From contig JBHPJE010000004.1 in NCBI GenBank assembly GCA_042568205.1, positions 1,280-65,279 of the forward strand: a stretch of DNA of 64,000 nucleotides. Reading direction: 5' to 3'. How positions within the stretch are numbered: the stretch's first letter is position 1; each line of letters opens with the position of its first letter. A program made the translations under genes and the position numbers. This stretch comes from Patescibacteria group bacterium (GTDB taxonomy: Bacteria; Patescibacteriota; Gracilibacteria; UBA1369; PNNO01). Of this stretch, positions 3,352 through 55,963 are shown in pieces. The notes under the pieces are model-generated. The model saw only the letters and a list, made by a program, of their open reading frames with translations, did no database searches and was not told where the DNA came from.

Positions 3352-4242
3352 ATGGGACGGCACATTGGAAAGATACTACAATTTTTTGGATTACTTTTGC
3401 TCTTTGTTATCAACCAGCAAAATATATCTGCTTTCTATCAAGAAGATTTTGAAAATCAGCTTGCTGAGCAGGTACCAGAAACGTATAATAATCACGCTGC
3501 TTCGAATGATGAGCACTACGCAAATCAACTAGATTCCCTTAATTTAAGGCTTTATCCGGGATCTACTTACAAGACAGAAAGTCGAAGCACACTAGGCTCT
3601 TTGAATCATTGCAAGTCTCTCGTGTTCCAGACGTTAACGTCTTTACCAGAAGAACATCGAGAGTATCTTCAGCACCTTACATTATATTTCGCTGAAGGAC
3701 GTCGCGGTTTAGGTGGCGGATCAACTATCATATTAAGATGCTCAAATATTGATGATATGGCACTCAGTTCAGTACTTGTACATGAAATGGGACATGTCGT
3801 TGATACAGGTCTTAAAACAGGTAACAGTTGGACAGGTAAAAGTGAATTTATGGATGGAAGCGTTCCAATCTATAATGACGATCCAAGCTTACGATTCTAT
3901 AGAATTAGTTGGCTGGATGAAAAAACTATTAAACCTGAAGCTGAAAGACAAGACTTTGTTACTGGATATGGTATGACTGATCCTTATGAAGACTTCGCTG
4001 AAAGCTATAATTACTATCTTTTACACGGAAAACAGTTTAAAGAGATGGCTAAATACGATAAAGAGTTAAGACGAAAATACCTATACCTAAAGTACTTTAT
4101 CTTCTCAGGACAAGAGTTTGATAACGATCAAAGTGAATTACCAAACTTTATCATGCGAAGATATGACTCGACAGTACTTGCTTACGATCACGAGAAGTTC
4201 CTGCGCTCAAACAATAATAGGCAGGAAATAGCTACACTCTAA
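3352..4242 (+). CDS. secreted or membrane-anchored zinc metallopeptidase-like protein (HExxH)
   Basis: N-terminal hydrophobic anchor ILQFFGLLLLFVI. Zincin motif VLVHEMGHVVD. Confidence 0.6.
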   Translation: MGRHIGKILQFFGLLLLFVINQQNISAFYQEDFENQLAEQVPETYNNHAASNDEHYANQLDSLNLRLYPGSTYKTESRSTLGSLNHCKSLVFQTLTSLPEEHREYLQHLTLYFAEGRRGLGGGSTIILRCSNIDDMALSSVLVHEMGHVVDTGLKTGNSWTGKSEFMDGSVPIYNDDPSLRFYRISWLDEKTIKPEAERQDFVTGYGMTDPYEDFAESYNYYLLHGKQFKEMAKYDKELRRKYLYLKYFIFSGQEFDNDQSELPNFIMRRYDSTVLAYDHEKFLRSNNNRQEIATL

Positions 4243-4323
4243 ACGGTCTTAACCGTTTAAGACATATGTTAGTTTAGGATATCGAGGCTTTTCTAGGGCG
4301 TTGGTACTCCTAAGTCTAAAAAG

Positions 4324-4356
4324 AAACAGCCCCCCAAGTGGGGGCTGTTTTTTTTG
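4324..4356 (+). terminator. rho-independent terminator
   Basis: Stem AAACAGCCCCC / GGGGGCTGTTT with a 5-nt loop, followed by a T-run ending at 4356. Confidence 0.7.
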
Positions 4357-4524
4357 TTTGATTTTGCGATGAGCACGACGGTGCGAATCGGAAAAGCAAA
4401 TACGACGAAGTCAGCGAGATAGCGAGTTGAAGGCTCGCTATCGCCTAAGACTGAGTGGCCAAACATATAAATTTACAAACAATACTAATTCCATTTAAAA
4501 AACGCCCTAAAAACTAAGAAAATC

Positions 4525-4553
4525 TTGCCAATAAGGGGCAAAGTATATAGAAT
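4525..4553 (+). promoter_or_regulatory. candidate promoter for tRNA-His (TTGCCA-17 nt-TAGAAT)
   Basis: TTGCCA at 4525-4530, 17-nt spacer, TAGAAT at 4548-4553, about 30 nt upstream of the tRNA 5' end. Confidence 0.45.
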
Positions 4554-4584
4554 AGCTTTTGCGTTTAGATACGCTTATTACTAT

Positions 4585-4662
4585 GGTGAGTGTAGCTCAG
4601 TTGGTTAGAGCACCTGGTTGTGGTCCAGGGGGTCGTGGGTTCGAGCCCCATCACTCACCCCA
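4585..4662 (+). tRNA. trnH: tRNA-His (anticodon GTG) with encoded G-1 and CCA
   Basis: Hand-folded cloverleaf: G-1, acceptor GTGAGTG/CACTCAC, D arm GCTC/GAGC, anticodon stem CCTGG/CCAGG with loop TTGTGGT, T arm GTGGG-TTCGAGC-CCCAT, discriminator C, CCA. Confidence 0.95.
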
Positions 4663-4756
4663 TTTATTTAGAGGCGCTGTTTTGGTTTATTTGAAGACGT
4701 TTACGGCGATTCGAGCGAGGAGTAATGAGTATATAGTGATTATATGATGTTCGAAC
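4663..4756 (+). repeat. 94-nt tRNA-His trailer segment X1 (copy 1 of 2), ending in palindrome GTTCGAAC
   Basis: Aligns without gaps to 10878-10971 with 85 of 94 identical positions (hand alignment). Confidence 0.85.
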
Positions 4757-4758
4757 TT

Positions 4759-4787
4759 TTGACATACCTGGATAAAAGCACTATAAT
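4759..4787 (+). promoter_or_regulatory. consensus sigma70 promoter TTGACA-17 nt-TATAAT
   Basis: TTGACA at 4759-4764 and TATAAT at 4782-4787 with a 17-nt spacer, 24 nt upstream of the ATG at 4812. Begins 3 nt after the end of X1. Confidence 0.6.
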
Positions 4788-4811
4788 TCGTCCTCTTTAT
4801 ACTATTATATT

Positions 4812-5819
4812 ATGCCAATAGAAGGATACAGTAAACACGATGAACCAACTTTACACACCGTTGAGCATAACCGAGAAGTTATGTTAATTGGTGAAGGTGA
4901 TTTAAGATTTGAATTTGCATTTATTGATCTTATAGCTAAATGTCAATTTGATTGTCGAGGTTGTTTTAATCAGGTTTTAAATGATACAGGTGTATCGCTT
5001 AGACAAGAAGAATTAAGAAGTATTGTTGATTTTCTTAAAGAAAGAGGTGGGAGGAATATTACTTTTGCAGGATCAGGTGAACCATTATTGGATCCTGAAT
5101 TATTACCGTTAATTGAATATGCTCACGATAAAGGTATCAATTCGATACTATTTTCCAGCTTAACTACTGTTAATGAAGCAAATGAAGTTGTTCCAGTAAG
5201 TTTAGAAATGGTAGAAGCGTTAAATAAGTTAGATGTACATATAGTTGCGAAAAGAAGTTGTATAGATAATGAAAAACAAGCAGAGATTCTGGGTGTTCCT
5301 AATACAGATGTTGGAGATAAAATGAATTTAGCATTACAAAGTCTTATTGATGCAGGCTTTGCTGAAGATGGAAGATTGTTTATGGATTGCCCAATTGATA
5401 GATATACAATTAATGAAATTCCACAATTACTTAGATTCTGTAGAGAAAGAGGCATACTTCCTTATTTTGAATCATATATTATTCACGGACAGGACAAAGA
5501 AACACAAAAAGAATATAGAATAAGTACCAAAGAGCTTGGTCTTTTATTTCAAGAACTTGCAAGGATCGATCAAGAGGAGTTTGGTATTGATATAGAACTC
5601 GGAAAAGGTATGAGAATTTATCACGCTGATGCTTGTTTAAAACCAGAGTATGGTTTTGCTGTTAAGGCTAATGGAGATGTTAGAAGTTGCCCAACAGATG
5701 CTACTAAAGCGGTTGGAAACATTAAAGAATCGGCTCTTGGAGTCATATTATCACCAAACAATGCTGAATATAGAGCAAAGTTTGGCAAATTTGGTTGTTG
5801 CGCAGTACTTAAAATCTAA
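4812..5819 (+). CDS. radical SAM enzyme with C-terminal SPASM/twitch-like region
   Basis: CX3CX2C motif (CQFDCRGC). Later GSGEPLL glycine-rich SAM-binding-like segment. C-terminal GDVRSCPTD...VGNIKE resembles the SPASM/twitch consensus. Confidence 0.8.
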   Translation: MPIEGYSKHDEPTLHTVEHNREVMLIGEGDLRFEFAFIDLIAKCQFDCRGCFNQVLNDTGVSLRQEELRSIVDFLKERGGRNITFAGSGEPLLDPELLPLIEYAHDKGINSILFSSLTTVNEANEVVPVSLEMVEALNKLDVHIVAKRSCIDNEKQAEILGVPNTDVGDKMNLALQSLIDAGFAEDGRLFMDCPIDRYTINEIPQLLRFCRERGILPYFESYIIHGQDKETQKEYRISTKELGLLFQELARIDQEEFGIDIELGKGMRIYHADACLKPEYGFAVKANGDVRSCPTDATKAVGNIKESALGVILSPNNAEYRAKFGKFGCCAVLKI

Positions 5820-10848: not shown

Positions 10849-10971
10849 GTTCGAACAAATACTAAACACTCACCCCATTTATTTAGAGGCGCTGTTTTGG
10901 TTTATTTGAAGATGTTTGCGGCGGTTTGACCGAGGAGTGATGAGTATGTAGTGATTATGCGATGTTCGAAC
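10849..10971 (+). repeat. att-like repeat R3 (29 nt) fused to X2, the second copy of the 94-nt tRNA-His trailer
   Basis: GTTCGAACAAATACTAAACACTCACCCCA at 10849-10877 has 1 mismatch to R1. It continues exactly as the sequence after the tRNA does (TTTATTTAGAGGCGCTG...) through GTTCGAAC at 10964-10971. Confidence 0.85.
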
Positions 10972-11104
10972 TTTTTGCCATATCTCATAATTGATGTTAA
11001 ATTCAAATTGTTTGTTGGATAATGAACGTCACAACCAAAAAGTGTAGGCGTTCGTTCAATACAACGCCTGCTCTTTGAAGACTCACGCAGAAAGAGAAAA
11101 AAAT

Positions 11105-11395
11105 ATGCCTGCTAAACCGAACACACCTCCACCTAAGATTCAAGTTAACACTGGGCAGAATACATTAAAAACTAACTGCTTGGCTGGTGCTTGGGGTAGA
11201 AATGATGGTGAAGACTCCATCGAAGGTTGCAAAGGTGATGCTAGCCATGAAGCAGTTTACGATGAGCTGTGGTCATTGAGATGCTGTAGCAATCCTGCCT
11301 GCCAGGAGTGGGCCAAAGGATATGTCGTCCGCGAAAGGAACAGAAACACCGTTCCAACTCTTCGTGGCGCACTGCAAGGCAAAATCGAGCTTTGA
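11105..11395 (+). CDS. small Cys-rich hypothetical protein (96 aa) in a GC-rich patch
   Basis: ATG at 11105 preferred over the TTG at 11075. Six Cys (..NCLAGAW..EGCKGD..LRCCSNPACQEW..). Local G+C visibly higher than surrounding DNA. 6-bp hairpin ACGATG..CATCGT follows the stop. Confidence 0.5.
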   Translation: MPAKPNTPPPKIQVNTGQNTLKTNCLAGAWGRNDGEDSIEGCKGDASHEAVYDELWSLRCCSNPACQEWAKGYVVRERNRNTVPTLRGALQGKIEL

Positions 11396-11484
11396 GCAGG
11401 AGTCAACTTACGATGAAGCGTGAGCATCGTGAGTTTGACCTAAATCAGTTTATTTGTCATATTCCCAAACCTTAATTTAGTTTC

Positions 11485-11825
11485 ATGAAAGGTGTAAAAA
11501 TTTCGAATGCTTACAATGCGGTATTTGTTGTTATACTCCACGCATTGATTTTGGTAACGGTGTAGTGAAGCCTCCAATGACTCCATGTAATTTTCTTGAA
11601 GTAGAAGAAATTAAAGATAGAGCATTAAGTGCTGCAAATTGTACTATACATGATAAAAAGCGACCTGATATTTGTGAAGATTTCACAAACAGTCAGTTTG
11701 GAGGACCATGTACAAGAGGACTTTTCTTTTGGAAAGAACATGTAGATAGAAATTTAGTTGATCTTGATAAAATTCCAGAAAAAGTACGTTTAATACTAGA
11801 AGGCATTTATAGTAGGACATCTTAA
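11485..11825 (+). pseudogene. YkgJ/UPF0153-type CxxCxxCC Fe-S/zinc protein, interrupted by a frameshift in an A5 run
   Basis: ATG at 11485 reads MKGVK, then goes out of frame at the A-run 11496-11500. The frame of track ORF 11565..11825 is open back to 11481 and encodes ..CKNFECLQCGICCYTPR.., i.e. the family signature lies upstream of any in-frame start. One extra A would give an intact ORF. Confidence 0.6.
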
Positions 11826-11940: not shown

Positions 11941-12231
11941 ATGGAAACAAAAGTTGTAAAATTTGAAATCGGAAAAATCTTAGCAATAATCATTGTAGTA
12001 ATTGCAATTGCAGTGCTAGCAAGTTTTGTTGTTAAAAGTACGTTTTTCGGAGGTAACATTAAAACTGCACCTATTGAGCCTTTAATTGAAAAGATTGAGT
12101 TTGATCCAACAAAGCATGAGCTTGATAAAACCTTTATAATTGATGAAAGCATTAATGTGCCAATCAATTCTGGTGATGAATTATTAGATCAAGATGCTGA
12201 CTTTAAGCCAGAATTTGAATCGCCAAAGTAA
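11941..12231 (+). CDS. small single-pass membrane protein (96 aa)
   Basis: TM segment ILAIIIVVIAIAVLASFVV followed by an acidic tail. Preferred over antisense ORF 11922..12167. Confidence 0.5.
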   Translation: METKVVKFEIGKILAIIIVVIAIAVLASFVVKSTFFGGNIKTAPIEPLIEKIEFDPTKHELDKTFIIDESINVPINSGDELLDQDADFKPEFESPK

Positions 12232-12250: not shown

Positions 12251-12817
12251 TTATTCTCCTTTTAATATTTTTCTAAGTGCTTTATATGCTTCTTTATATT
12301 GCTTAGCGAAAGCTTCGCCATCCTCTTTAGTAACGTGTGTGATATTTGGTATTTGATATTGTGGCTCAAAAGAACATGCGTCCCGAATCTCTTTTGGAAG
12401 TAATTTTGCAAATGTATTTAGTCTTTCACTGCCATAGCCACTACTTAATCCTGTTTCTGGGTCAACATACAAAATAGTTAGACATTCTCCTTGTTTTATT
12501 TCTTCAGGAGTGTACATAGTCCCATCATTCTCGCATGGAAACGCCCCTAGAAGTAATTTACAACCTTTAGGGTATTTTTCTCTTAAATTTCTAAAATTTT
12601 GTTTAAAATAATCTAATTTTGCTTCGAGTAATTCGTCAGACATAAAATCATCACCATATACCTCAAACACTTCTTGTAAATCCTCTAATGGTATTGATTC
12701 TGCTTGATCAACAGATATTGGGACTCCTGCATTATTGTATTCGACGAGGCGTTGCGACTCATTCAATATTGTCATTGCAACTATTGCATCACTTTGATTA
12801 AATTCTAATTTATTCAT
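12251..12817 (-). CDS. acidic hypothetical protein (188 aa), downstream partner of the giant kinase-domain gene
   Basis: ORF starting 24 nt downstream of the stop of the 1962-aa gene on the same strand. No motif recognised. Confidence 0.65.
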   Translation of the reverse strand: MNKLEFNQSDAIVAMTILNESQRLVEYNNAGVPISVDQAESIPLEDLQEVFEVYGDDFMSDELLEAKLDYFKQNFRNLREKYPKGCKLLLGAFPCENDGTMYTPEEIKQGECLTILYVDPETGLSSGYGSERLNTFAKLLPKEIRDACSFEPQYQIPNITHVTKEDGEAFAKQYKEAYKALRKILKGE

Positions 12818-12841
12818 ATGTTTTTATGTTATTTATATTAA

Positions 12842-15800
12842 TTAAAGTTGATCAACTACATTTTGTAAAGATATATAATCCGGATCTCTGCTGCCGTCAG
12901 GTTTAAATTCTGTAGGATGGTTTCTGACATCTCTTAGTTTATTAGCTAGATCATACAATTTTTTCGCACTTGCAGGCGCATCTTCATTCAAAGTATAACT
13001 ATGATCCCAATCATCATCGGGTTTTGTCTTTGTAACATGTCCTCTTGCTTTTAGTCTTTCTAAAATAGTAGATCCTACTCCATATTTATCTCCGGCATCA
13101 ACCGGCAATTTACCGCTAACAGAATCTGAAATTAATTGCGGATTATGATAAAGGGCAGTAAATCCCACATTATACATTTGACCATCCTTTCCTTTAAAGA
13201 ATGGAATTTCAACTAAATTCCCTTGGATTTCAACTTGAAATACTGTAAGCCCACCAGCTTTATCCAATTTCCCAAAATTAGATTGCCTTGTCATACTACC
13301 TATATCGATAAGCTCGCCTGTATTAACCAACTTCCCTTCAGCGTTTTTTATTTTACCAATAACAACATTTGCGGGTTTTAAATCATTATGCGCCATCCCT
13401 TTTACGTGTAAAGAAATAGCTCCCTTGCACATTCCTTTTAAAACTTGTGAAAATTCCTTATCACTCAATGTTCCTAATTTTGACTCTAATTCATGCGATT
13501 CTCCTTTAATATCAGACACCTTTTCGTAAAGAATAAATCCTTTTGTTCTAAAAACAGGTTTTGCTATATGTGCATCACCAGGATGAGGACCATGTTCTTG
13601 ACTAGCTTGTGAATAATCTCCAACATTAAAGTGTTCATAATCAAATTGGGGTTTTGCTTCAGTATTACCCGGAATTAATATCTTATATGCCCCTTCTTTT
13701 AATTTATTAGACGGTTTAATTACATACCATGTTTCAAAAGCTACACCTATTCCACCCTCTTCACCCAATTGCTTTCCTTTATACATTCTTATTGTTCGAC
13801 CGTTTTCGTCTGTATGCTCTGTTGCTCCTTTTAGCATTGCTCTTATCATTTTCTCGTTTGCAATTTCTGGATTTGCCTTAAGAATCGCTTTATCATCTGG
13901 TGTTAATTCATGTCTCTTTTTCCCAGTTTCTATTAATTTATTTATTTGATCAGGACTCATCCCCTCAAACAATTTTGCTAAATTTTCCTTCATCATTGAA
14001 TCAAGTTTCGGTCTGATTCTTTTACCATGAGGATTAAACTCAGTACCAACATAAGCAATTAACAATTGTTTAAAATCTTTACCATCTTTTGATGTTCCAT
14101 TTATCAAATCAGCTAAATCAACAGCATTTTCTGAATTGAACTCAACACCATTTGCTTTTAATTGTGTAAGAGCTCTAACAAAGGCCTTACCTTTCATTAA
14201 CCGTACATCTAATGATGGGAATTCAGAATTATCGGATAAGTTTCCAAATCTTCCTGCATGTTTTTCCAAACCAAAATCGCGTAATTTTCCAACAACATCA
14301 CTAACTTCATCAGCTACTTGTTGTAAACGATCAAGTTCAGCAACTCTTTCCTGCAAAGTTGTAAATCTTGATTTATCACTATAATTAGTAACTTGCTTAA
14401 CTTCAGCTCCTAAACTTCTTATTCTTAAACTATCAGCTTTAAATTGAATTTCTCCATGTAGTTGAATAAGCTCTTTGACTATTTTTTGCCTTTGTTTTAA
14501 TGACTTCATTTGCCGCCCGGTACTTGTCATGAAAGATAGTTCCTTATTTGATATTTCTTTTGCTAAATCGTGCAAACTAATTTTTTCTAATTCTACTCTT
14601 AGCTTATCTAATTCAATTTGTACCATTTTGTCAGGTGCCTCTGCTCTCTTTGGTTCATATTTAATACCTTTAATACTTGCGGCTTTTGGTTGTGCTTTAG
14701 GAAATAAATCTACATTTCCACCTGATGCTGGCTCTCCTTGAACAAGTGTTCCTGCGGCTCTTGCTTCAGGCGAACCTATAGCTGGAGGTTTAGATGAAGA
14801 AGGAGGAGAGGGTTGTGCAGTTGAACCAGCCCATTCAATATTTGTCTTTCCTCTGATTTGATTCACAGATTTAAATTCAGGGATAGGGCCACAACCCATA
14901 GCTCCAAGTTTTTGAGTTGGTATAATTTTTATATCTAGTAAAAGTTTTGGTATTTTTTTCGCGTATTTAGTCAAACCATACTTTTTGTTAAATTTAGACA
15001 TAGAACCACCACAATCTTGCACCAATAGCGCAAAGGCTTCTCTTATGGTTTTGTTTTTGAAGTATTTAACAATCCTTACTTTATTCTTTACGAAGAATCT
15101 TTCGGCTTTCCTTCTATCGGCTATTTGCTGTTCTGACATAATTGCTGTTCCTTTTGGAAGTTTTACTTTAATTTCAACTCCTCCTTTTCTAATACTTACT
15201 GTCCCATCTTGATTCTGTATTGCTAAAAATCCTCGTTCTCTTAACTCTAGAATTGTTTCCTGATAATCTTCTTTATTTTTGAATGTATATTCGCCTTTTT
15301 TATTCTTAGTAAGATTTGGGATTCTTGTAATTTCTGCCTGAGGTGTTAAATTCTCGCTTTGTTTAGCAGGTTTAACTTCAAAAGCAGAGATTTCCTTATC
15401 TATAACTTTGCCATCCTTCCCTCTAACTTTTGTTTTAAGATAAATAAATACATTTTTATTTTTATCAATTTTATAACTAAAGTGTTGATCAGGCTTACTT
15501 CCAAATTTTGCAGCTAAATTTTGTACAAACTGTTTAGGATTTGCAGTTGTATAAACGAAATTATTTCCTTCGGTTGCAAATCCTACATCTGTAGCACCAA
15601 TTCCGTGTAAAGCTAATTGTGTATGTGGACTTTTAGAACAACCTATTGCCGAAACTATCCATCCTACATACGGATTTGTTCTTTCAGCACCTTCTTCGAA
15701 ACCCTCCTGACCTAATTCTCTACTAAAATCTCTAAAAGTACTATTTTTACCCTGAATATAATTTTCAGGATCTAAAAATTTACCAATACTTTGAATTTTT

Positions 15801-18730
15801 TTAAGTCCAAACTTTCCAAAGCCTTTATAAAATCTATTTGGTGATTTTGCCAACCTAGTGAGACCAGACATGGCTCCTCTAGCTGCATAAACTGCACTCA
15901 TACTCATTGCAAAACCAATAGCAAAATCTTTAGCTAAACCTTTTGCTTCCCAAATTTTCTTAAATCCACCATAATCAATAGCTCCGGTAGCTTGAAATGC
16001 TGACATTGCAAGTCTTGATCCAACAGCTCCTCCTGCTGATGCTCCAGCCATACTAGTTGAAGTAACTAAGAATTGCTGTACCCCTGCACTCGCTACACGA
16101 GCAAATAACCTTTGGCCAAGTGCTGCAAAAGCAGATCCACCTACCATTGCAGTAGCAACAGCTGTAGTTAAAATTGCTACATTTGCAATACTAGTTGCAA
16201 ATTCAGTCATAACTTTTTTATCAAGTGCGTTTTTAAGCTCTAATCTTTGAAGTGAGAGCTTAGTATCAAATCCTGAACCATAAATCGCTTTTTCATCATT
16301 ATGCATCTTCATAATTTTATCTCGAGCGACTTTAATATTTTTCTTTATTTGATCTCTTAATTGTGGACTATTTTTGTATTTTTGATTCGCCGCAAGAGAT
16401 GTTTTCCCTAATTCTACCCATTTAGCAAATAAGAAATCGTTTGCTTTTTCACTATGATTCGCTGCTTCTCCATATAATTTAATTGCTTTTTCATATCCAA
16501 AAGTAAAAGGCGTTGTAGGATTCTTCATAACAATTGCAATTGCATTAACCTTCCTTACTGCTTCATTAACATGCCCATCTTTACTAAATAGCTTAGTTTC
16601 AATTTCATCGAAGGGTTTTGAAAGTTCAGCTTTAACGAACGGTTGAATCAATTCAGAACTAGCTAAATTTTCATATTTAGATAAATTCTGTGTGACATTT
16701 AAGAAAATATTTAAAGCCTTGAGCTTTTCACCGTAAATATCAGCTCCTTTTCCTACAGTATCAGCAGTCTCACCCAAACTTTCATCAAAACGTTTAATTC
16801 CATGTGTATGTACTACTTCTCCAACACCTTTTCCTGTTCTGTACGTCCTAACATTATTACCATTCTTTTTAAGTATCTCCTTGAATGTTTTTCCCTTAGG
16901 CTCATTAAGCATTGCTGCCATTTTAAAATCCTGACAAATTTTTAAATATTTTGAATCTAATTTCCTTAGTAAATGCAACATTGAACCATATCCGATCAAC
17001 CTTGCTTTAACTTGTTCTTGTTTCTCAACAGGTTTAATATCAAATATTGTTTTATTCTCAGGCGGAGATTTACTAACAGTTTTGAAAAAATCTTCATGTT
17101 CTTGCATAGTCATACTAATTTGGGACATAGCATTCCGAGTATTCACAGCTTTCCGCTGTATAAGTTCCAAGTTTGTTTTCTTATCCCATGAAGGTGTTGT
17201 TTCAAGTTTCCCTGTTTTATAAAAATCATTATGAAATTCACGATAGAGGTCCCCATGTTCTCCTTCAAAGAGTCCAGAGGGATTATCTAAACTAATTAAT
17301 TCTTTTTCAGCAAGTATTGCTTGGTAACTACTAAACAAAGGAGACATTGGAATTTTGTGCTCTTTTGAAAACTTCTTTAATCCATTTAAATTTTCGGTAT
17401 CATTAAATTTACGTTGGCCAAAATATCCCAACATAGCACTAATATTTGCTTTTGTATCTTCTGATTTAAGATTAGTTGATGGTTTAGCTATGTACTTTTT
17501 CGTCATATCTTTAGCCATGTCCAAAAAAATCCTTAATGAATCCAGAGATTTTAACTTTAGTTTCTGTTGAACAATACTTTTTTGATGTTTAAGAATTTTA
17601 TCATCAACCTCATCTTTAGCATCATATTCTCGATATATTTGAAGTTGTTCAATTTCTTTTTTTAACTTTGAAGCACGTTGATTTCTATCCTTCTCAAGAT
17701 TAGTTTTATTTCTTATGTATTCTTTTTCTATATACATTGATTTTTTTGTATATTCAGCTGAACCACCCTTCATTAATGAGTGGTCAAAGATAAATCGAAG
17801 TAATTGCTTTGGTGGCATTTCTTTTGCCATTATCGCAAATTCTTTAGGGTTGAGTTTTTTCAAATATGCAACTTTTGCAAGAATAAATTGAGTTACTTTT
17901 GACTTAGGTATCCCAATGGATTCATACGCTGCCATTAGTCTATTAACTTGATGTAGCTCTAATCTAATCCCCTGACCTTCAACAGAATTTCGAATTTTCA
18001 AAAATTTTTCCTGAAACTTTTGTTGTTTTTTGAATTCTTTGAATATTTTCTCACCTGCTGAAATATTCCCATTACAGTAATGGCCAAGCATACTAAATAC
18101 TTGTGCTCTCTCACCTTTAGAAAAGAGTTTAGTTTGTACCCTAAAATCACTCGAAATAATATCTGCATCTAATTTGTTTTGTATTGTTTTATGTTGAAAA
18201 AATATTTTTATAGTCTCTTTCATTCGACTTTTAATCGTTTTAAGAGGGACTCTTTTTGAACTAGGCGTTCGTACATAAGCTTCAGCATATTGAGCAAACA
18301 TTTTTTTACCAATATTGCTATTTAAGAAATCATAATTAGTAATTGATTCTCTTATTGCATTAAAATCAAGTCGCGCTTTATGTGTTTCTATTTTTTTTCT
18401 TAAAGTTACTGTTCTAACTTTCAATTTGCTTTCAAACACGGCCATCTTTAAATTACCAGATGCCAATTTCCTAATTGCAGCAACCATATCTTTCAAATAT
18501 GCTTGCTTTTGTGCATCAACTATCTTGCCATGCTTATCAAGACCTTTTGTTTCATTCCATGCTCCTTTTGCAGCATCAGCCCATTTAGAAACTTCTTTAT
18601 GATGTTTTGCTAAATACTTAATTGTTCTTCCACGAAACTTAGTCCATTCTGCCTTAGTTTTAACTCCTTCAGGCTTTTTTTCTGGATCTATAAAAAGTTT
18701 TACTGCTCCTGCTACATCGTCAAATGGCAT
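12842..18730 (-). CDS. giant multidomain protein (1962 aa) with C-terminal Hanks-type protein kinase-like domain
   Basis: Last ~318 aa (nt ~12845-13798) contain a G-loop-like LGEEGGIGVAF, AYKIL (Lys), the catalytic loop HNDLKPAN (nt 13367-13390) and LIDIGS in place of DFG. A central Gly/Ala-rich hydrophobic block lies at nt ~15880-16200. The N-terminal ~1000 aa are Lys-rich. Confidence 0.85.
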   Translation of the reverse strand: MPFDDVAGAVKLFIDPEKKPEGVKTKAEWTKFRGRTIKYLAKHHKEVSKWADAAKGAWNETKGLDKHGKIVDAQKQAYLKDMVAAIRKLASGNLKMAVFESKLKVRTVTLRKKIETHKARLDFNAIRESITNYDFLNSNIGKKMFAQYAEAYVRTPSSKRVPLKTIKSRMKETIKIFFQHKTIQNKLDADIISSDFRVQTKLFSKGERAQVFSMLGHYCNGNISAGEKIFKEFKKQQKFQEKFLKIRNSVEGQGIRLELHQVNRLMAAYESIGIPKSKVTQFILAKVAYLKKLNPKEFAIMAKEMPPKQLLRFIFDHSLMKGGSAEYTKKSMYIEKEYIRNKTNLEKDRNQRASKLKKEIEQLQIYREYDAKDEVDDKILKHQKSIVQQKLKLKSLDSLRIFLDMAKDMTKKYIAKPSTNLKSEDTKANISAMLGYFGQRKFNDTENLNGLKKFSKEHKIPMSPLFSSYQAILAEKELISLDNPSGLFEGEHGDLYREFHNDFYKTGKLETTPSWDKKTNLELIQRKAVNTRNAMSQISMTMQEHEDFFKTVSKSPPENKTIFDIKPVEKQEQVKARLIGYGSMLHLLRKLDSKYLKICQDFKMAAMLNEPKGKTFKEILKKNGNNVRTYRTGKGVGEVVHTHGIKRFDESLGETADTVGKGADIYGEKLKALNIFLNVTQNLSKYENLASSELIQPFVKAELSKPFDEIETKLFSKDGHVNEAVRKVNAIAIVMKNPTTPFTFGYEKAIKLYGEAANHSEKANDFLFAKWVELGKTSLAANQKYKNSPQLRDQIKKNIKVARDKIMKMHNDEKAIYGSGFDTKLSLQRLELKNALDKKVMTEFATSIANVAILTTAVATAMVGGSAFAALGQRLFARVASAGVQQFLVTSTSMAGASAGGAVGSRLAMSAFQATGAIDYGGFKKIWEAKGLAKDFAIGFAMSMSAVYAARGAMSGLTRLAKSPNRFYKGFGKFGLKKIQSIGKFLDPENYIQGKNSTFRDFSRELGQEGFEEGAERTNPYVGWIVSAIGCSKSPHTQLALHGIGATDVGFATEGNNFVYTTANPKQFVQNLAAKFGSKPDQHFSYKIDKNKNVFIYLKTKVRGKDGKVIDKEISAFEVKPAKQSENLTPQAEITRIPNLTKNKKGEYTFKNKEDYQETILELRERGFLAIQNQDGTVSIRKGGVEIKVKLPKGTAIMSEQQIADRRKAERFFVKNKVRIVKYFKNKTIREAFALLVQDCGGSMSKFNKKYGLTKYAKKIPKLLLDIKIIPTQKLGAMGCGPIPEFKSVNQIRGKTNIEWAGSTAQPSPPSSSKPPAIGSPEARAAGTLVQGEPASGGNVDLFPKAQPKAASIKGIKYEPKRAEAPDKMVQIELDKLRVELEKISLHDLAKEISNKELSFMTSTGRQMKSLKQRQKIVKELIQLHGEIQFKADSLRIRSLGAEVKQVTNYSDKSRFTTLQERVAELDRLQQVADEVSDVVGKLRDFGLEKHAGRFGNLSDNSEFPSLDVRLMKGKAFVRALTQLKANGVEFNSENAVDLADLINGTSKDGKDFKQLLIAYVGTEFNPHGKRIRPKLDSMMKENLAKLFEGMSPDQINKLIETGKKRHELTPDDKAILKANPEIANEKMIRAMLKGATEHTDENGRTIRMYKGKQLGEEGGIGVAFETWYVIKPSNKLKEGAYKILIPGNTEAKPQFDYEHFNVGDYSQASQEHGPHPGDAHIAKPVFRTKGFILYEKVSDIKGESHELESKLGTLSDKEFSQVLKGMCKGAISLHVKGMAHNDLKPANVVIGKIKNAEGKLVNTGELIDIGSMTRQSNFGKLDKAGGLTVFQVEIQGNLVEIPFFKGKDGQMYNVGFTALYHNPQLISDSVSGKLPVDAGDKYGVGSTILERLKARGHVTKTKPDDDWDHSYTLNEDAPASAKKLYDLANKLRDVRNHPTEFKPDGSRDPDYISLQNVVDQL

Positions 18731-18732
18731 TT

Positions 18733-18987
18733 TTATTTTTTAAATTTATTAATATATTTTTTTGTAATTTTATCAACTTCTTCATGTAAATCATCCTCTA
18801 AATCATCCTCAAATATAAGTGTTAATGCTGTATCTAAGTCTTTTTTTTGATTATTTTTAAAATAGGTGTAAATCTTTTTCATTTCTTCCTGGTTTAGATC
18901 ATCTAAAAGCTCAATCCATTTAGATTTTTCAGATTCATCAATAAAATCAACACTATTGATCAAATTTTTTAATTTTTGTTTTAACAA
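18733..18987 (-). CDS. small acidic hypothetical protein (84 aa), upstream partner of the giant gene
   Basis: TTG-initiated track ORF whose stop lies 2 nt before the ATG of the 1962-aa gene. Start codon is uncertain. Confidence 0.45.
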   Translation of the reverse strand: MLKQKLKNLINSVDFIDESEKSKWIELLDDLNQEEMKKIYTYFKNNQKKDLDTALTLIFEDDLEDDLHEEVDKITKKYINKFKK

Positions 18988-19175
18988 AGTTTATTTTGGT
19001 TACATTTTATCTAAATATTATAACAAAAATTACACAAATTTACAATGCTCAAACAGGCATTTATTGTTTATTTAAAAACACTTTTAGAGACTTGACCTAA
19101 TTTTGTAACGGCTAACATCGCATTTCGTTTTAATAGGTGTTAGAATAAGTCGAATATTTAATTAACCTTTTATAT

Positions 19176-21035
19176 ATGAATAACAAGATCGTAAAGGTGC
19201 TACTCCCCTTTCTAGCTGTGATTGGGCTGTTTATTGTAGCATCATCGACTGTTTCTGCTGCGTATCAGACCCTACACGTAGACGGAGAGCTGATTTGGGT
19301 GGATTATGGGACATATGCTCATGGCCCTGCTGATTCCCCTTATTTAACCATTACTGAAGCATTAAATGCCATGGATTCAGACGGAGGCGTTATTAAAGTT
19401 GCTGAAGGTACTTATACAGAAAATCTTGATTTGCATGATTTAGATGATATTAGTATCAATGGAGGGTACAATGGTGGTCCTGGAGATTCAAATCCCTTTA
19501 CTACTCAGGATACAGAAGGTCAACAATCTGTTTTAGATGGCCAAATCACAGGTACGAATATTTCTGGTGCAATCAGTGGAATGACTTTTTCAAACAATAT
19601 TGGTGGGAATTTCTTAATTTCTATTAATCTTGCTGGAGGTGGTTATAGTTTTGAGGTTAGTGATAACTTTTTCAGCTATAACAATCTTACTCAATTTTTT
19701 GTAAGAGTTACTGCAAACTCAGGAAGCAGTGCTGAAATTTCAAACAACCATTTTGGGAATGTTACTAGTTCACAATCTTTAGTTGATACAGGTGGAACTG
19801 GAGATACGCATGTTATGAAAAACTTTTTTGACTGGGCAACTTCATTAAATGGATCTTATGGAATCATAAGAGCTACTGATGGAGCAAAAGTTTACAATAA
19901 TTTAATTGTAAATTCTGGTCCTAATAACCGAGTTGCAATTAGAATTTCTGATGCTGCTGAGGTTTATAACAACACAATCGCTGATGGAACAGCTACAACA
20001 GCTTCAATCGCATCAAGCGGAACAGAAGAACACAATGTTTACAATAATTTAGTTGCAAATATGACTGGACCTGACTTTGTTTGGTCTACTGCTGCTGATG
20101 AATCAAACAATTTTTCAAATTGTGATCCTGATTTCACTGGAGGATCTGGTCCTGACGCTTATAAATTAGGCGCATTATCTACTTGTATTGATGTTGGAAC
20201 TGCTGTTTCTACTGCAAATCGCGATTATTTCGGCACTTCAAGACCTCAAGGAGAAGAATATGATGTTGGATTCCATGAATTTGAAATCACGCCTGCATGC
20301 GGAAATGGATATTTAGAATCAGGAGAACAATGTGATGACGGGAACACAACTGACGGAGATGGATGTGATTCTTCTTGTCATACTGAATCAACTCCTCAAC
20401 CTGCTGTTTGCGGTGATGGTACTGTAGATTTAGGTGAAGAATGTGATGATGGAAATAGTGTGAACGGAGATGGATGTAATGCAATGTGTGAAGATGAAGT
20501 TGTTGTTGATTGTGGAAACTGGCTAGATATCAACTCTTCTGATGACCATTATGCTATTGCGGTTTATCTTTGTGAAAATGGTGAAATCGTTAAAGGAGAT
20601 ACTTACGGAAATCTAAGAATTGACGACGATTTAACTCGTGCAGAACTTCTAGCAATGGCATTTAGAGCTCGTGAGTATGAAGGCTATGGCGTTGTAGATG
20701 TTAATGCTGAAGCATGTTTCAACGATGTAACTGATGATTGGTATGCAAAATACTTCTGTACTGCAAAGGACGAAGGGTTTGTTGAAGGATATGCTGGAAA
20801 TGTTGCTAAACCTGGAGCAATCGTTCTTTTAGGAGAAGGATTGAAAATGTTCTTAGGAGCTTTAGATAAGAACTACACAATCGATACTGATGATTGTTGG
20901 TATTGTTCAATGGTAACTTCAGCAGGTAATTTAAATTGGATTCCATTCCAATTTAATGATCCAACTGAGGTTGGGCCAATGGAATTAAGCAGAAGATATG
21001 CAATGGATATGCTTTATAGGATTTTAACTAACTAA
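19176..21035 (+). CDS. secreted protein: beta-helix-like N-terminal region, two Cys-rich CGxG..E[QE]CDDGN repeats, SLH-like C-terminus
   Basis: Signal peptide LLPFLAVIGLFIVASSTVSA. Repeated N-rich turns (NNxxxN). CGNGYLESGEQCDDGNTTDGDGCDSSC and CGDGTVDLGEECDDGNSVNGDGCNAMC. LTRAELLAMAF plus FNDVTDDWYAKYF. Confidence 0.8.
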   Translation: MNNKIVKVLLPFLAVIGLFIVASSTVSAAYQTLHVDGELIWVDYGTYAHGPADSPYLTITEALNAMDSDGGVIKVAEGTYTENLDLHDLDDISINGGYNGGPGDSNPFTTQDTEGQQSVLDGQITGTNISGAISGMTFSNNIGGNFLISINLAGGGYSFEVSDNFFSYNNLTQFFVRVTANSGSSAEISNNHFGNVTSSQSLVDTGGTGDTHVMKNFFDWATSLNGSYGIIRATDGAKVYNNLIVNSGPNNRVAIRISDAAEVYNNTIADGTATTASIASSGTEEHNVYNNLVANMTGPDFVWSTAADESNNFSNCDPDFTGGSGPDAYKLGALSTCIDVGTAVSTANRDYFGTSRPQGEEYDVGFHEFEITPACGNGYLESGEQCDDGNTTDGDGCDSSCHTESTPQPAVCGDGTVDLGEECDDGNSVNGDGCNAMCEDEVVVDCGNWLDINSSDDHYAIAVYLCENGEIVKGDTYGNLRIDDDLTRAELLAMAFRAREYEGYGVVDVNAEACFNDVTDDWYAKYFCTAKDEGFVEGYAGNVAKPGAIVLLGEGLKMFLGALDKNYTIDTDDCWYCSMVTSAGNLNWIPFQFNDPTEVGPMELSRRYAMDMLYRILTN

Positions 21036-21052
21036 AAATCGCAGGTATAAGC

Positions 21053-21088
21053 AAAGAGCGCTGTCATATAACTGATAGCGCTCTTTTT
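21053..21088. terminator. bidirectional hairpin terminator between convergent genes
   Basis: AAAGAGCGCT / AGCGCTCTTT stem with a 14-nt loop, T-run on the + strand and A-run on the other side. Confidence 0.65.
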
Positions 21089-21095
21089 AATTAAT

Positions 21096-21551
21096 TTAGC
21101 TTTGTCTGTCCCAAGTTTCTGTCATAGGTCCTGTAACTACTGTCATTACTTCAACATCGCGTTCTTCATCATATTTAATCTCATATGTGTAAGGAACTGT
21201 GATTCCTGTAGGAACATTTGGACAAGTTGTACTATCTAAAGTGATTGTAATCTTATTTCCACCTTCATTCATAACTTTTCCTGTATTAATACAAGTACCT
21301 GTAGAAGTGTAATTTGTATTGTTTAAAGTCCAAATAGCTGGATCTTCACTTTCTAATTCTCCATTAACATATGTTGCTGTTCGTTGCCAAACACCAACAT
21401 AATCTTCTGGGAATGGATCAACTGTTTCAAGCGCTTCATCAACTGTTATTGGAGGTTGTTCATTTAATTCTTCGAGTGTAGGTTGCGGTTCAGTACATCC
21501 TGCAGCAAAAATAACAACGAAAATTGCTAAGAGGCTTAATAGCTTTTTCAT
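21096..21551 (-). CDS. lipoprotein (151 aa)
   Basis: Lipobox-like LLAIFVVIFAAGC at the N-terminus. Confidence 0.7.
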   Translation of the reverse strand: MKKLLSLLAIFVVIFAAGCTEPQPTLEELNEQPPITVDEALETVDPFPEDYVGVWQRTATYVNGELESEDPAIWTLNNTNYTSTGTCINTGKVMNEGGNKITITLDSTTCPNVPTGITVPYTYEIKYDEERDVEVMTVVTGPMTETWDRQS

Positions 21552-21595
21552 GTTTTAGGGATTACGAATATCAACCCCATTTTACACCAACTTAA

Positions 21596-22897
21596 TTATG
21601 GTGCAACTGGTAATCCATAACCTGAAGCAGCATCATAACCAGGACCTGCTCCCCCACCATATGCATCAGTTATATCTTCAGCAATGCTTCGTAAGTATAA
21701 ACGGGTACTTTCAGCATCACCCTGCCAAACTTTTGCTGCTAATCCAGAAACAGTTGGGGCTGACATTGAGGTCCCGCTAGATCTTACATAACAACCATTT
21801 ATTGAAAATGCAGATTCTACACTTCTTCCTCCAGCAACTAATTCAACTTCTTTTTCAACAATAGTTGAATCATCTCCATCATCGATTCCTCTTGCTGAGA
21901 AACTAACAACTTGCTTATTTTGATCAATTGCTCCAACTGCAACAACTTCTTTATAGGCAGCAGGATAACCAATTAACACTCCGTTATATCCATAATTTCC
22001 TGATGATGCAATAAATAGAACATCAGGATTACTTAAAATCGCTTCTTCTATCAATGGAGCTGGGACATCACTACTAAAACTCATACTAACGATTTCTGCC
22101 CCTCTTTTTCCTGCATAATTAATTGCTTCTGCTATATCATCATCATTACAATATCTTGAATAACAAACCTTAATTGCCCAAATATTTGCATTAGGTGCAA
22201 CACCAAATATCCCTAATCCATCAGGACCTCCATTTGCACCAACAGTTCCAGCTGTGTGAGTGCCGTGATAAATTGTATCTTCACAACCATTACTCATGCC
22301 ATTGCTTGTTGTGTCTTTACAAACTTTAATATTATCTAAATCAATATGATCTAAAAATGCTCCTGTATCTAACACTGCTACATCAATTTTGTCTCCTGAA
22401 GGTATTTGCCCACCATTAACCTGAGTAACATTGTATGGTATTTGATCAATTGGCTCGCAAGTTCTTTCCTTTGCTTTGTTAGAATTCGGATTTTTACACT
22501 GACAATAGTTACATTCTTTTCCTTCAGAACATTGAGGTAACCCAGTTTCTCCACATTGCTCTGACGCCTGAATCAAGCCATCCCCACAATATTTGGGACT
22601 TTCAAAATTTGCTATTTCTAATACAACTACATCTTCAACTTCAGCATATTGATCTAAAGATAAATCTTCAGGTATATTTGCTGAAAATTTCCCATCAAAT
22701 TCATGCATTACTTCAACATCTTTATTTTGTCGGATTGTAAGCTCAGACTTAGCATCATTTGGTTTAATTAAAACACGTTTAACTTTGTCTGAATGTGTGT
22801 CATTTTTAGCAATTAAAGTTGAGCTGATTAGCACACCTAAAAGTACTGCTAAACAAACAGTAACAATTAGCACAGAAGTATGTTTTTTTGTAGACAT
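21596..22897 (-). CDS. subtilisin-like (S8) serine protease, secreted
   Basis: Catalytic triad motifs AVLDTGA (Asp), HGTHTAGTVGA (His), SGTSMSAPTVSG (Ser). N-terminal TM/signal. Confidence 0.9.
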   Translation of the reverse strand: MSTKKHTSVLIVTVCLAVLLGVLISSTLIAKNDTHSDKVKRVLIKPNDAKSELTIRQNKDVEVMHEFDGKFSANIPEDLSLDQYAEVEDVVVLEIANFESPKYCGDGLIQASEQCGETGLPQCSEGKECNYCQCKNPNSNKAKERTCEPIDQIPYNVTQVNGGQIPSGDKIDVAVLDTGAFLDHIDLDNIKVCKDTTSNGMSNGCEDTIYHGTHTAGTVGANGGPDGLGIFGVAPNANIWAIKVCYSRYCNDDDIAEAINYAGKRGAEIVSMSFSSDVPAPLIEEAILSNPDVLFIASSGNYGYNGVLIGYPAAYKEVVAVGAIDQNKQVVSFSARGIDDGDDSTIVEKEVELVAGGRSVESAFSINGCYVRSSGTSMSAPTVSGLAAKVWQGDAESTRLYLRSIAEDITDAYGGGAGPGYDAASGYGLPVAP

Positions 22898-49347: not shown

Positions 49348-49361
49348 ATTATTTAAATTAT

Positions 49362-53804: not shown

Positions 53805-53866
53805 TATTTTATTTTAATTTTTCCTTATATTATAGCAGAAAATTAAGGTTTTTTCAATTGTAAATG

Positions 53867-54811: not shown

Positions 54812-54818
54812 ATTTGAT

Positions 54819-55952: not shown

Positions 55953-55963
55953 TTATTTAATTT

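Follow-up and report, generated by a model that had tools for sequence, protein, structure and literature searches.

What is the function of a 1962-aa protein that ends in a kinase-like domain and is encoded between two small genes? The question is raised by a locus on the chromosome of an uncultured Peregrinibacteria-type (CPR) bacterium, within a window of 64,000 nt, by which we mean the whole stretch of DNA that was analysed. An earlier note, made from the sequence alone, had likened the arrangement to secreted effector or toxin modules with chaperone or immunity partners. Here we examine the locus and its relatives, and weigh that proposal against other explanations.

The locus

The unit comprises three genes on the minus strand (positions 18987-12251), the strand to which all coordinates below refer. 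In order of reading they are an 84-aa ORF (18987-18733; TTG start, encoding a small Lys/Glu-rich protein), the giant gene (18730-12842; ATG start, 1962 aa) and a 188-aa ORF (12817-12251). The first stop codon lies 2 nt before the giant ATG, and 24 nt separate the giant gene from the 188-aa ORF; these sizes and gaps, read directly from the sequence, agree with the earlier description, as does the basic character of the giant protein (pI 9.6). Upstream of the 84-aa ORF, a promoter-like site (19017-19045; TTGTAA, 17 nt, then TATAAT with a preceding TG) is a candidate operon promoter. It reaches 10/12 with an extended -10 in a consensus scan, a consensus match alone, in a region that has fewer such sites than shuffled sequence.

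The giant protein is identical to the NCBI entry 'hypothetical protein ACFL3T_02070 [Patescibacteria group bacterium]'. Its architecture of scaffold plus kinase, together with both flanking ORFs, is also present in L003, a locus assembled independently from another metagenome, and thus the three-gene feature is not a product of chance. The earlier note had suggested looking for the arrangement in other genomes, and had allowed that the flanking ORFs might prove unconserved or non-coding; both are conserved coding genes in relatives. The loci of the window and its relatives sit among housekeeping genes, with conserved synteny that includes metabolic genes.

A family with a constant body and exchangeable C-termini

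An exhaustive HMMER search with the conserved core recovered at least 34 cluster representatives at E<=1e-3 (24 at E<=1e-10). All named representatives are from Peregrinibacteria or Patescibacteria, and no description of the family was found in the literature searched. By homology, the giant protein belongs to an undescribed family in which a constant, predicted membrane-inserting body is combined with a swapped enzyme tip and a matching small partner gene.

Family members have in common the N-terminal ~1300 aa, including the Gly/Ala-rich block. The body opens with a ~110-aa domain starting MPF(D/K/E) (18401-18730), which members of the close subfamily keep at their N-terminus and which also starts a tandem paralogue in L003 whose body otherwise diverges. 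This second giant gene and P0003 have the N-terminal domain in common (46% over ~110 aa) and otherwise only a hydrophobic block, and the domain is a candidate for partner binding or targeting. A Lys-rich scaffold region follows, defined by composition (aa 111-649, 16784-18400). Most family members have a match to it, at profile positions equivalent to aa ~200-630; searches of Pfam, PHROG and NCBIfam gave none. The conserved core (aa 650-1297, 14840-16783) is the most widely common part of the family; it has no homologue among PDB sequences and no tblastn match among 50,697 phage or 72,556 plasmid records.

Within the core, hydropathy places a Gly/Ala/Ser-rich hydrophobic block at aa ~843-958 (15857-16204), as the earlier note had claimed. 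One helix in it (aa 845-871) is strong enough to exceed a strict Kyte-Doolittle cut-off for transmembrane segments; two weaker helices are rich in small residues. A transmembrane-like segment stands at the equivalent position in nearly all family members, in conserved alignment columns, and we regard the block as the predicted membrane-inserting part of the constant body. The constant region ends with the motif MGCGPIPEF (aa 1278-1286, 14873-14899), which the window protein and P0002 have in identical form and L002 retains as CG..P.E..SV.

Just beyond this motif, similarity breaks off. With both P0002 and L002, 68-90% of residues are identical as far as aa 1300, and ~20% beyond it. The variable part begins with the Pro/Ser linker that had been noted before, a Pro/Ser/Ala-rich low-complexity stretch at aa ~1298-1344 (14699-14839; aa 1301-1400 hold 11 each of Pro and Ser), and continues with an adaptor region (aa 1345-1639, 13814-14698). 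In BLASTP comparisons, aa 1357-1962 are 30% identical to P0003, and parts of the adaptor are 27-34% identical to P0002, P0004, P0008 and L002; weakly related segments stand before other payload modules in relatives. A kinase forms the C-terminus of the window protein, P0003 and P0008. In P0002 three tandem, divergent HExxH modules take that place (close relatives overall carry one to three), in L002 an HD domain; GGDEF occurs in five family members and FHA in two. The modules are shuffled among members, some of which carry mixed arrays, such as the HExxH plus GGDEF of P0005 and P0007. Another member, P0004, is named 'metallophosphoesterase' by NCBI.

Partner genes

The 84-aa ORF is 70% identical to its positional counterpart in L001, likewise of 84 aa, and in L003, L005, L006/7, L008/9, L010 and L011 a homologue of 88-119 aa immediately precedes the giant gene. 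As a member of this family stands before the giant gene in each of the eight close-subfamily loci with known upstream sequence, the 84-aa ORF is, judged by gene order, the constant upstream partner of the scaffold. Both small proteins had been described as acidic. This holds for the 188-aa protein (pI 4.7) and, mildly, for the 84-aa protein of the window (pI 5.0), but not for the upstream family: six of nine relatives examined are basic (pI 9.1-9.8) and three fall at 5.6-6.3, so the upstream family has not conserved an acidic character. A conserved W is present in the family.

The 188-aa ORF is 41% identical to the 188-aa ORF that follows the P0003 kinase (E 9e-52) and 37-39% identical to a 186-aa ORF after the P0008 kinase. 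This family is found downstream of kinase-ended members only (three of three) and is absent after non-kinase relatives. A different, unrelated acidic family of 176-180 aa follows all three GGDEF ends with known downstream sequence. In P0002 and P0004 the giant gene is not directly followed by a small ORF on the same strand, and the small flanking ORFs are absent in more distant subfamilies. Searches of Pfam, PDB, PHROG and PADLOC gave no match to the 188-aa protein. Its distribution makes it a candidate cognate partner of the kinase module, perhaps an inhibitor or immunity protein; a role as substrate or regulator is also possible.

Effector or endogenous scaffold

A sharp breakpoint (here at aa ~1300), shuffled C-termini and a covarying downstream ORF mark out the loci of polymorphic effectors or toxins. 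Our best reading, to which we assign a probability of about 0.45, takes the giant protein for a polymorphic effector whose cognate partner is an inhibitor or immunity protein. The likeness to effector and toxin modules that had been proposed stands in these respects; it does not extend to secretion, for which neither a signal nor linkage to a secretion system was found. The earlier observation that no known secretion signal is recognisable agrees with our searches of Pfam, NCBIfam and PHROG, in which LXG, PAAR, TPS, Rhs, MafB-N and other trafficking domains gave no match, and the N-terminus, set beside those of the close subfamily, is not a signal peptide. In the window and the relative loci the neighbours are housekeeping genes, with no conserved linkage to a secretion system.

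A close parallel is with polymorphic toxins such as CdiA-CT/CdiI, Rhs and MafB, as described in the part of the survey by Zhang et al. 2012 (PMC3482391) considered here. Both have a large constant N-terminal region with a variable C-terminal enzyme, a sharp breakpoint after a short motif (CGPIPEF here, VENN or PxxxxDPxGL there), a small downstream gene that covaries with the C-terminal domain, and cassettes shuffled among relatives. The giant family differs in its novel, lineage-restricted body with no recognisable trafficking domain or signal peptide, in the members that have no downstream partner, and in that no orphan cassette arrays were seen. It also differs in its payloads, which are Hanks kinase, GGDEF, HD and FHA in place of nucleases, deaminases and pore-formers; in the part of the survey considered, the first four do not occur as terms.

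Besides the missing secretion signal and linkage, the lack of a downstream ORF in P0002 and P0004 and of flanking ORFs in the distant subfamilies speaks against the effector reading. In addition, kinase, GGDEF, HD and FHA are classic intracellular signalling modules and not classical toxins, and an even number of helices in the block would put both ends of the protein in the producer's cytoplasm. The main rival explanation, which we consider somewhat unlikely, is an endogenous membrane-anchored signalling or regulatory scaffold. Here the block would be a helical hairpin, the N-terminal region and the enzyme would both face the producer's cytoplasm, the enzyme would act on the cell's own targets, the downstream protein would be a regulator or substrate, and the upstream protein an assembly factor. 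The payloads match the standard bacterial signalling toolkit (Pkinase, GGDEF, FHA and HD, with P0004 a named 'metallophosphoesterase'), but orthologues ~68% identical over 1300 aa that lead to biochemically unrelated outputs across a knife-edge breakpoint would be unusual for a wired-in pathway, and the three HExxH modules of P0002 and the mixed arrays elsewhere look like an effector array. ATP- and GTP-dependent enzymes need a cytoplasm, neither signal peptide nor secretion linkage was found, and the gene is a stable chromosomal resident of conserved housekeeping neighbourhoods, all of which suit a scaffold. The downstream partner is missing in some members, as a scaffold would allow; where small acidic partners are present, however, they covary with the payload, which is the pattern of immunity genes. 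Canonical bacterial Hanks kinases carry the kinase at the N-terminus, whereas here it lies at the extreme C-terminus, after the transmembrane block.

The kinase domain

The C-terminal ~320 aa (aa 1640-1962, 12845-13813) contain the four kinase motifs previously pointed out: LGEEGGIGVAF (aa 1655), AYKIL (aa 1681), HNDLKPAN (aa 1781-1788, at the stated 13367-13390) and LIDIGS (aa 1807). The sequence and fold matches are without exception to protein kinases, none lying outside the kinase fold, and we assign the region as a predicted divergent Hanks-type Ser/Thr kinase domain. Pfam Pkinase (PF00069) matches the window protein at 23.1-25.9 bits, P0003 at 26.8 and P0008 at 30.3, all under the 31.7-bit gathering threshold, with E-values of 4e-7 to 6e-5 and no competing family. 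Among PDB sequences STK16 matched at E 7e-6, and a three-sequence profile matched 187 PDB kinases (E<=0.01), IRAK4 and PknB among them at 1e-7; the matches in Pfam, PDB, PHROG and PADLOC all centre on the catalytic loop. AlphaFold2 models were of low confidence (pLDDT 39.6 from the single sequence; pLDDT 44.2 and pTM 0.44 from the three-sequence alignment). In a Foldseek search of the kind the earlier note had advised, the top 50 PDB matches to such a poor model were all kinases or pseudokinases (best E 5e-4, probability 0.99, TM-scores ~0.3).

The predicted catalytic residues are K1683, E1699, D1783, K1785, N1788 and D1809, with D1881 at subdomain IX. The catalytic motifs are all invariant in P0003 and P0008, two relatives of 32-37% identity, and such invariance among three homologues only 30-37% identical argues for selection on catalysis. 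In the G-loop, G1656, G1659 and G1660 are invariant; the window form, LGEEGGIGVA, has a one-residue insertion relative to GxGxxGxV, and the loop aligns to that of IRAK4. The beta3 Lys (K1683) and the alphaC Glu (E1699, in an F.YE motif) are likewise invariant and colinear with the K and E of IRAK4. The catalytic loop reads HNDLKPAN in the window and HNDFK(P/L)AN in relatives, which makes the kinase a non-RD type since it has HND and not HRD. The Lys of the loop H-R/x-D-L-K-x-x-N is a sign of Ser/Thr specificity. The metal-binding Asp, which the earlier note had expected the DIG variant to keep, is invariant (D1809), within DIG in the window and P0003 and DPG in P0008; the Phe of DFG is not kept. 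At subdomain IX the motif DK(Y/F)xVG holds the invariant D1881. Judged by these residues, the kinase appears catalytically competent.

These data also bear on the possibility that the domain is a pseudokinase, or its motifs a chance occurrence, and the protein a large surface or structural protein, which we consider very unlikely. The sub-threshold Pfam scores, the poor models and the JAK2 pseudokinase domains at the top of the Foldseek matches would be expected of such a protein, but both N-lobe and C-lobe matches are colinear with IRAK4, twitchin and PKR (N-lobe and catalytic-loop segments in the profile alignment), and P0008 has a canonical G-loop, LGEGGFGSV, and a Pfam match spanning profile positions 5-137. 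The APE position is degenerate (YHNPQ, FHDQT or YSDPA across the three homologues), and the activation segment, ~45 aa from DIG to the APE-like motif, has a ~20-aa insertion relative to the two homologues; against this, all residues for phosphotransfer, from the G-loop glycines to D1809, are present and invariant.

Comparison with other systems

Small targeting factors adjoin effectors in Esx systems (PMC13622651), and T7SSb LXG toxins of Bacillota, with small helical Lap targeting factors, resemble the locus in having small upstream genes, a large protein with a C-terminal toxin domain and an immunity gene. The giant body is ~10 times longer than an LXG domain and has a transmembrane block. 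We rejected assignment as a T7SSb LXG toxin locus: neither the giant protein nor the 84-aa ORF matched LXG, WXG100, DUF3130 or DUF3958 in Pfam, the 84-aa family has no WxG motif, and no EssC or other T7SS genes were seen in the window. MARTX and large clostridial toxins are also giant polypeptides with a hydrophobic or glycine-rich translocation region and exchangeable effector arrays, comparable to the three modules of P0002 and the HExxH plus GGDEF of P0005 and P0007. The giant family has no cysteine-protease autoprocessing domain, RTX repeats, CROPs or T1SS, would probably target bacteria and not eukaryotic cells, and has cognate downstream partners, which these toxins do not.

With Hanks-type kinases such as PknB and IRAK4, the domain has in common the G-loop, VAIK Lys, alphaC Glu, HxDxKxxN, DxG Asp and subdomain IX Asp. 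It differs in its sub-threshold Pfam score, its HND, DIG/DPG and degenerate APE motifs and its activation-segment insertion, and in a ~300-aa preceding adaptor and a dedicated 188-aa partner. Translocated bacterial kinase effectors are known, among them LegK, YpkA, OspG and NleH, and in these too a larger protein linked with delivery carries the kinase as its terminal payload.

Phage tape measure proteins with upstream chaperones have a similar layout, and were rejected as a match for want of PHROG matches to the body, nearby tail genes or phage and plasmid tblastn matches, and in view of the housekeeping context. A mobile-element origin, in which the protein would be a tape-measure-like or 'polyvalent' component or remnant of a phage or conjugative element, enter cells along with the DNA and have the upstream ORF as its assembly chaperone, is extremely improbable: its long N-terminal region, Gly/Ala-rich segment, C-terminal enzyme and small upstream ORF, the multi-enzyme arrays of relatives and the T4SS-pilin-like genes elsewhere in the window (49-56 kb) would fit, but the only PHROG match is the kinase, LPD (large polyvalent protein-associated) domains were not matched in Pfam, the core is absent from the phage and plasmid records searched, no phage or conjugation genes adjoin it in ten distinct relative loci or the window, and synteny with metabolic genes is conserved.

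Proposed mechanism and implications

Under the preferred reading of a polymorphic effector, the 84-aa protein would serve as chaperone or targeting factor by binding the N-terminal region of the giant protein. The hydrophobic block would enter a membrane, either the producer's envelope or that of a contacted cell, and its insertion would carry or expose the C-terminal enzyme. The kinase would then phosphorylate Ser/Thr targets in the recipient cytoplasm, a site suggested by its requirement for ATP. In the producer or its kin, the 188-aa acidic protein would bind and silence the kinase as an immunity protein or inhibitor. Cassettes may be exchanged by recombination at the conserved CGP-motif boundary, and an immunity or inhibitor role would explain why the 188-aa gene travels with the kinase cassette at each exchange.

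A bolder form of the effector reading, distinctly unlikely in our view, is that these proteins constitute a Peregrinibacteria-specific, self-contained family for effector translocation. With the aid of its small upstream partner, the ~1300-aa scaffold would lodge the block in the membrane of a host bacterium that the producer contacts and deliver interchangeable signalling enzymes (a Ser/Thr kinase, diguanylate cyclase, HD hydrolase or metalloproteases) that reprogramme the host without killing it, each payload with a co-inherited acidic inhibitor. If this is true, the family would have the window protein as its founding member and would give this CPR lineage its first candidate effector system for host manipulation. 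A Hanks-kinase payload would likewise be a first among polymorphic systems, and delivery would take a route independent of known secretion systems.

Results

We find that the 1962-aa giant protein is encoded on the minus strand (18730-12842) within a conserved three-gene unit, between an 84-aa ORF with a TTG start (18987-18733, minus strand) and a 188-aa ORF (12817-12251, minus strand). The intergenic gaps, read directly off the sequence, are 2 nt and 24 nt, respectively, and at 19045-19017 on the minus strand there is a candidate promoter-like site whose -10 is extended. Coordinates and gaps agree with the three-ORF arrangement described in an earlier note on this DNA, as do the motif positions it gave, including HNDLKPAN at nt 13367-13390. 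Its description of both small partners as acidic holds for the 188-aa protein (pI 4.7), but the 84-aa protein, at pI 5.0, is just mildly so and most of its homologues are basic; the giant protein itself is basic (pI 9.6). Hydropathy places a single strong transmembrane-like segment at aa 845-871, within a ~115-aa Gly/Ala/Ser-rich block. NCBI lists the identical giant protein as 'hypothetical protein ACFL3T_02070 [Patescibacteria group bacterium]'; a search for exact matches to the 188-aa product gave no called gene on record, absence from the assembly index not being proof of absence. Neither the kinase nor the 188-aa ORF nor the scaffold occurs a second time within the window. A plus-strand 96-aa ORF (11941-12231) converges on the 188-aa ORF and stops 20 nt short of it; it has one clear N-terminal transmembrane helix and no homologues among the small ORFs of related loci.

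The window is AT-rich (about 34% GC) and carries housekeeping genes (BipA, NusG, ribosomal protein L1 and an aspartate-oxidase-like flavoprotein) together with many large unannotated proteins, SLH-domain proteins and T4SS-pilin-like proteins, a profile typical of the Candidate Phyla Radiation (CPR). Divergent from the operon (19176-22897) are genes for a 619-aa DUF4215-repeat and SLH protein, a 151-aa ORF and a 433-aa subtilase (Peptidase_S8); a distant family member (P0023, at locus L012) likewise has a subtilase-plus-SLH protein nearby. A 1446-aa giant with GEVED and SdrD B-like domains (31875-36215, minus strand) is probably a surface protein. At 47095-58357 on the minus strand, 30 kb from the giant gene, a cluster of large surface-type genes encodes, besides a 797-aa protein without matches, two proteins of 314 and 377 aa that each have three T4SS_pilin (PF18895) domains, a 1480-aa protein in which six PKD domains accompany a T4SS/TrbC-like pilin domain, and a 750-aa protein of PKD repeats. 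This cluster may be part of a patescibacterial T4SS-like apparatus; it has no link to the giant family in other genomes. A gene-poor stretch at 10900-11600 forms a 45-50% GC peak in a ~33% GC genome and holds only short odd ORFs, for example a Cys-rich 106-aa ORF with a TTG start (11075-11395); it has no Rfam match at E ≤ 1, and its folding is not clearly above that of shuffled sequence (z -1.7 and 0.0 on the plus and minus strands, respectively). The region 3352-5819 encodes a putative zinc metallopeptidase-like ORF (weak Peptidase_Mx), tRNA-His (4586-4662) and a radical SAM/SPASM-domain protein (4812-5819), and the two protein-coding genes could form a peptide-maturation pair.

A word-indexed search with the whole protein returned the giant protein and one relative, P0002 (3205 aa), which is 68% identical over aa 1-1297 and unrelated beyond; a second relative, recovered by genome scan from a Peregrinibacteria MAG (L002), is 67% identical to the same point. 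In 50-aa windows, identity to P0002 is 62-90% up to aa 1300 and 8-30% past it, and identity to L002 is 36-84% (falling from aa ~1200) and then 8-30%. The break comes directly past MGCGPIPEF, a conserved motif. With a profile of the body (the N-terminal ~1300 aa), an exhaustive HMMER search of 1.84 billion representatives retrieved 34 proteins at E ≤ 1e-3, 24 of them at E ≤ 1e-10, mostly 1000-2900 aa long; the named relatives come from Candidatus Peregrinibacteria MAGs. Regions common to the family span aa ~200-630 and, most strongly, aa ~650-1200, and nearly all members have a transmembrane-like segment at the equivalent position. Pfam gave no matches to the family bodies, and the core (aa 650-1297) has no sequence homologue in the PDB. 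The family neighbourhoods consist of metabolic and housekeeping genes in two recurring arrangements, one with GT4, NAD kinase and PEPCK or PPDK upstream and glutamate dehydrogenase downstream, the other with a DinG-like helicase, ICMT and the CPSase small chain upstream and ATCase and DHOase downstream. Metagenome DNA-pattern scans with the scaffold and 188-aa alignments returned nothing, the patterns probably being too specific or too degenerate.

Beyond the breakpoint, the window protein continues through a Pro/Ser linker and a ~300-aa adaptor region into the kinase (aa ~1640-1962); the P0002 tail comprises three divergent ~330-aa repeats with an HExxH motif in each, and the L002 tail carries a Pfam-significant HD domain (42 bits) and an unknown domain. 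Across the family, Pfam detects GGDEF (five members), FHA (two) and Pkinase (two) in the tails. An all-against-all comparison found tail modules recurring in differing combinations, with HExxH plus GGDEF in P0005 and P0007, and a P0004-like module plus a kinase in P0008. The NCBI name of P0004, 'metallophosphoesterase', was not reproduced with Pfam at E ≤ 0.05. These alignments reveal a constant body bearing a conserved, predicted membrane-inserting block, and cassettes that appear to be exchanged at a fixed boundary with the partner gene moving along.

The HExxH modules of P0002 (aa 1560-3205, locus L001) are arranged in tandem, are mutually 23-27% identical and carry YPNG..LR.T...W as a conserved C-terminal motif. 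Neither Pfam nor the PDB has a match to them; they also occur in P0005, P0007, P0033 and P0034, and may constitute a new family of putative metallopeptidase-like modules. At L003, the locus of P0003, a second giant gene (13924-16944, running into P0033) lies in tandem, directly downstream of the kinase-ended gene with its 188-aa partner; the tail of this second giant carries HExxH modules resembling those of P0002. Because it has in common with P0003 only the ~110-aa N-terminal domain of the close subfamily (MPF; 46% identity) and a Gly/Ala-rich block, the MPF domain may be an independent functional module.

The earlier note's claim of a C-terminal kinase was borne out by database matches that are weak, yet all to protein kinases. 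Pfam Pkinase scores 23-26 bits, under its 31.7-bit gathering score, the closest PDB match is STK16 (E 7e-6), and weak matches include a PHROG 'serine-threonine kinase' family and the PADLOC PD-T4-6 kinase. The PD-T4-6 matches are confined to the catalytic loop and a PADLOC defence-system identity is without support. Stronger evidence comes from two homologues of the kinase module that the family search yielded, P0003 and P0008, 30-37% identical to that of the window. Invariant in all three are the G-loop glycines (canonical LGEGGFGSV in P0008), K1683 and E1699 (giant-protein numbering), the catalytic loop H1781-N-D1783-x-K1785-x-A-N1788, D1809 (in a DIG or DPG context), D1881 within DK(Y/F)xVG, and an NHP motif at the C-terminus. 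A profile built from these sequences matches 187 PDB kinases at E ≤ 0.01 (top, IRAK4 and PknB, 1e-7), its N-lobe segment (G-loop, Lys, Glu) and catalytic-loop/DFG segment being colinear with PDB kinases, and P0008 reaches 30.3 bits against Pfam Pkinase (profile positions 5-137). AlphaFold2 models of the domain were poor (pLDDT 39.6 from the single sequence, 44.2 from the three-sequence alignment); the top Foldseek PDB matches are all kinases or pseudokinases, but because the models are low-confidence and TM-scores only ~0.3, they are only suggestive of a kinase fold. Word-indexed searches returned nothing for the C-terminal 622 aa, not even the giant protein, and only two weak ordinary kinases for the three-sequence profile, with P0003 and P0008 missing; this search apparently misses C-terminal regions when proteins are long, and absence is not implied. 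We conclude that the domain belongs to the known Hanks-type kinase superfamily as a new, divergent member, and its conserved residues point to a Ser/Thr kinase that is probably active.

The flanking ORFs have homologues at matching positions in relatives' loci. Homologues of the 84-aa ORF (84-119 aa) lie directly upstream of the giant gene in every close MPF-subfamily locus with upstream sequence (the window, L001, L003, L005, L006/7, L008/9, L010 and L011), with two paralogous copies each in L010 and L011. Directly after the kinase ends of P0003 and P0008 come 188-aa and 186-aa homologues of the window's 188-aa ORF (41% identity, E 9e-52, and 37-39%, E 5e-39, respectively), and none follows relatives with non-kinase ends. 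This family has no PDB or Pfam relatives. GGDEF-ended proteins have a distinct acidic family (176-180 aa) directly downstream in 3/3 cases, P0002 and P0004 have no co-directional small ORF directly downstream, and small flanking ORFs are absent from distant subfamilies at the loci examined. Each flanking ORF co-varies with a different part of the giant protein.

Discussion

The family joins an unchanging body to enzymatic tips that are shuffled beyond a sharp breakpoint, with partners that co-vary, and this combination is the genetic signature by which polymorphic effector or toxin systems are known. As the gene unit, payload, body and cassette exchange match this signature, we prefer to read the giant protein as an exchangeable-payload effector, at a probability of roughly 0.45, in which the 188-aa protein would keep the kinase payload inactive. 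The upstream small gene resembles the targeting factors or chaperones that T7SS, T3SS and T4SS encode beside their effectors (PMC13622651). Membership of the LXG/T7SS, Rhs, CDI or MARTX groups was rejected, as none of their defining domains is present.

Several observations weigh against an effector. No export route was recognised, the giant gene is not linked to a secretion system in the window or at the relatives' loci examined, the downstream partner is missing in some members, and kinase, GGDEF, HD and FHA are signalling modules. These four terms are also absent from the available portion of a 2012 polymorphic-toxin survey (PMC3482391). The giant protein could instead be an endogenous membrane-anchored signalling scaffold with the downstream partner as its regulator or substrate; we regard this, the main rival reading, as less likely, and it would entail unusual output-domain swapping between close orthologues. 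The window kinase is of non-RD type, reads DIG where DFG is usual, has a degenerate APE motif and, compared with P0003 and P0008, carries ~20 inserted residues in its activation segment; comparison of the three modules nonetheless shows selection for catalytic residues in this kinase-like payload, and a dead kinase is unlikely. A mobile-element or tape-measure origin is also unlikely, and a phage tape-measure or polyvalent origin was rejected, with no PHROG match to the body, no tblastn match to the core in phage or plasmid collections and no mobile-element neighbours.

We found no description of the giant family in the literature on Peregrinibacteria or CPR giant proteins, effectors or polymorphic toxins, and in NCBI the members are called 'hypothetical' or take the name of one tail domain. 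CPR/Patescibacteria account for a large portion of bacterial diversity and are presumed to live on other cells; to our knowledge, almost nothing is known of their host-acting proteins beyond a few cultivated Saccharibacteria. The locus defines a lineage-restricted family with signalling enzymes as payloads, and on either the effector or the scaffold reading its ~650-aa core and the two small partner families represent new protein families without structural or functional annotation. Concrete candidates are two pairs, the kinase and its 188-aa protein, and the GGDEF module and its 176-180-aa protein. The family suggests polymorphic-effector logic built on a new scaffold and fitted with unusual payloads, in a phylum of which little is known; if the effector reading is true, polymorphic effector biology would extend to a new scaffold, a new payload chemistry and a new phylum.
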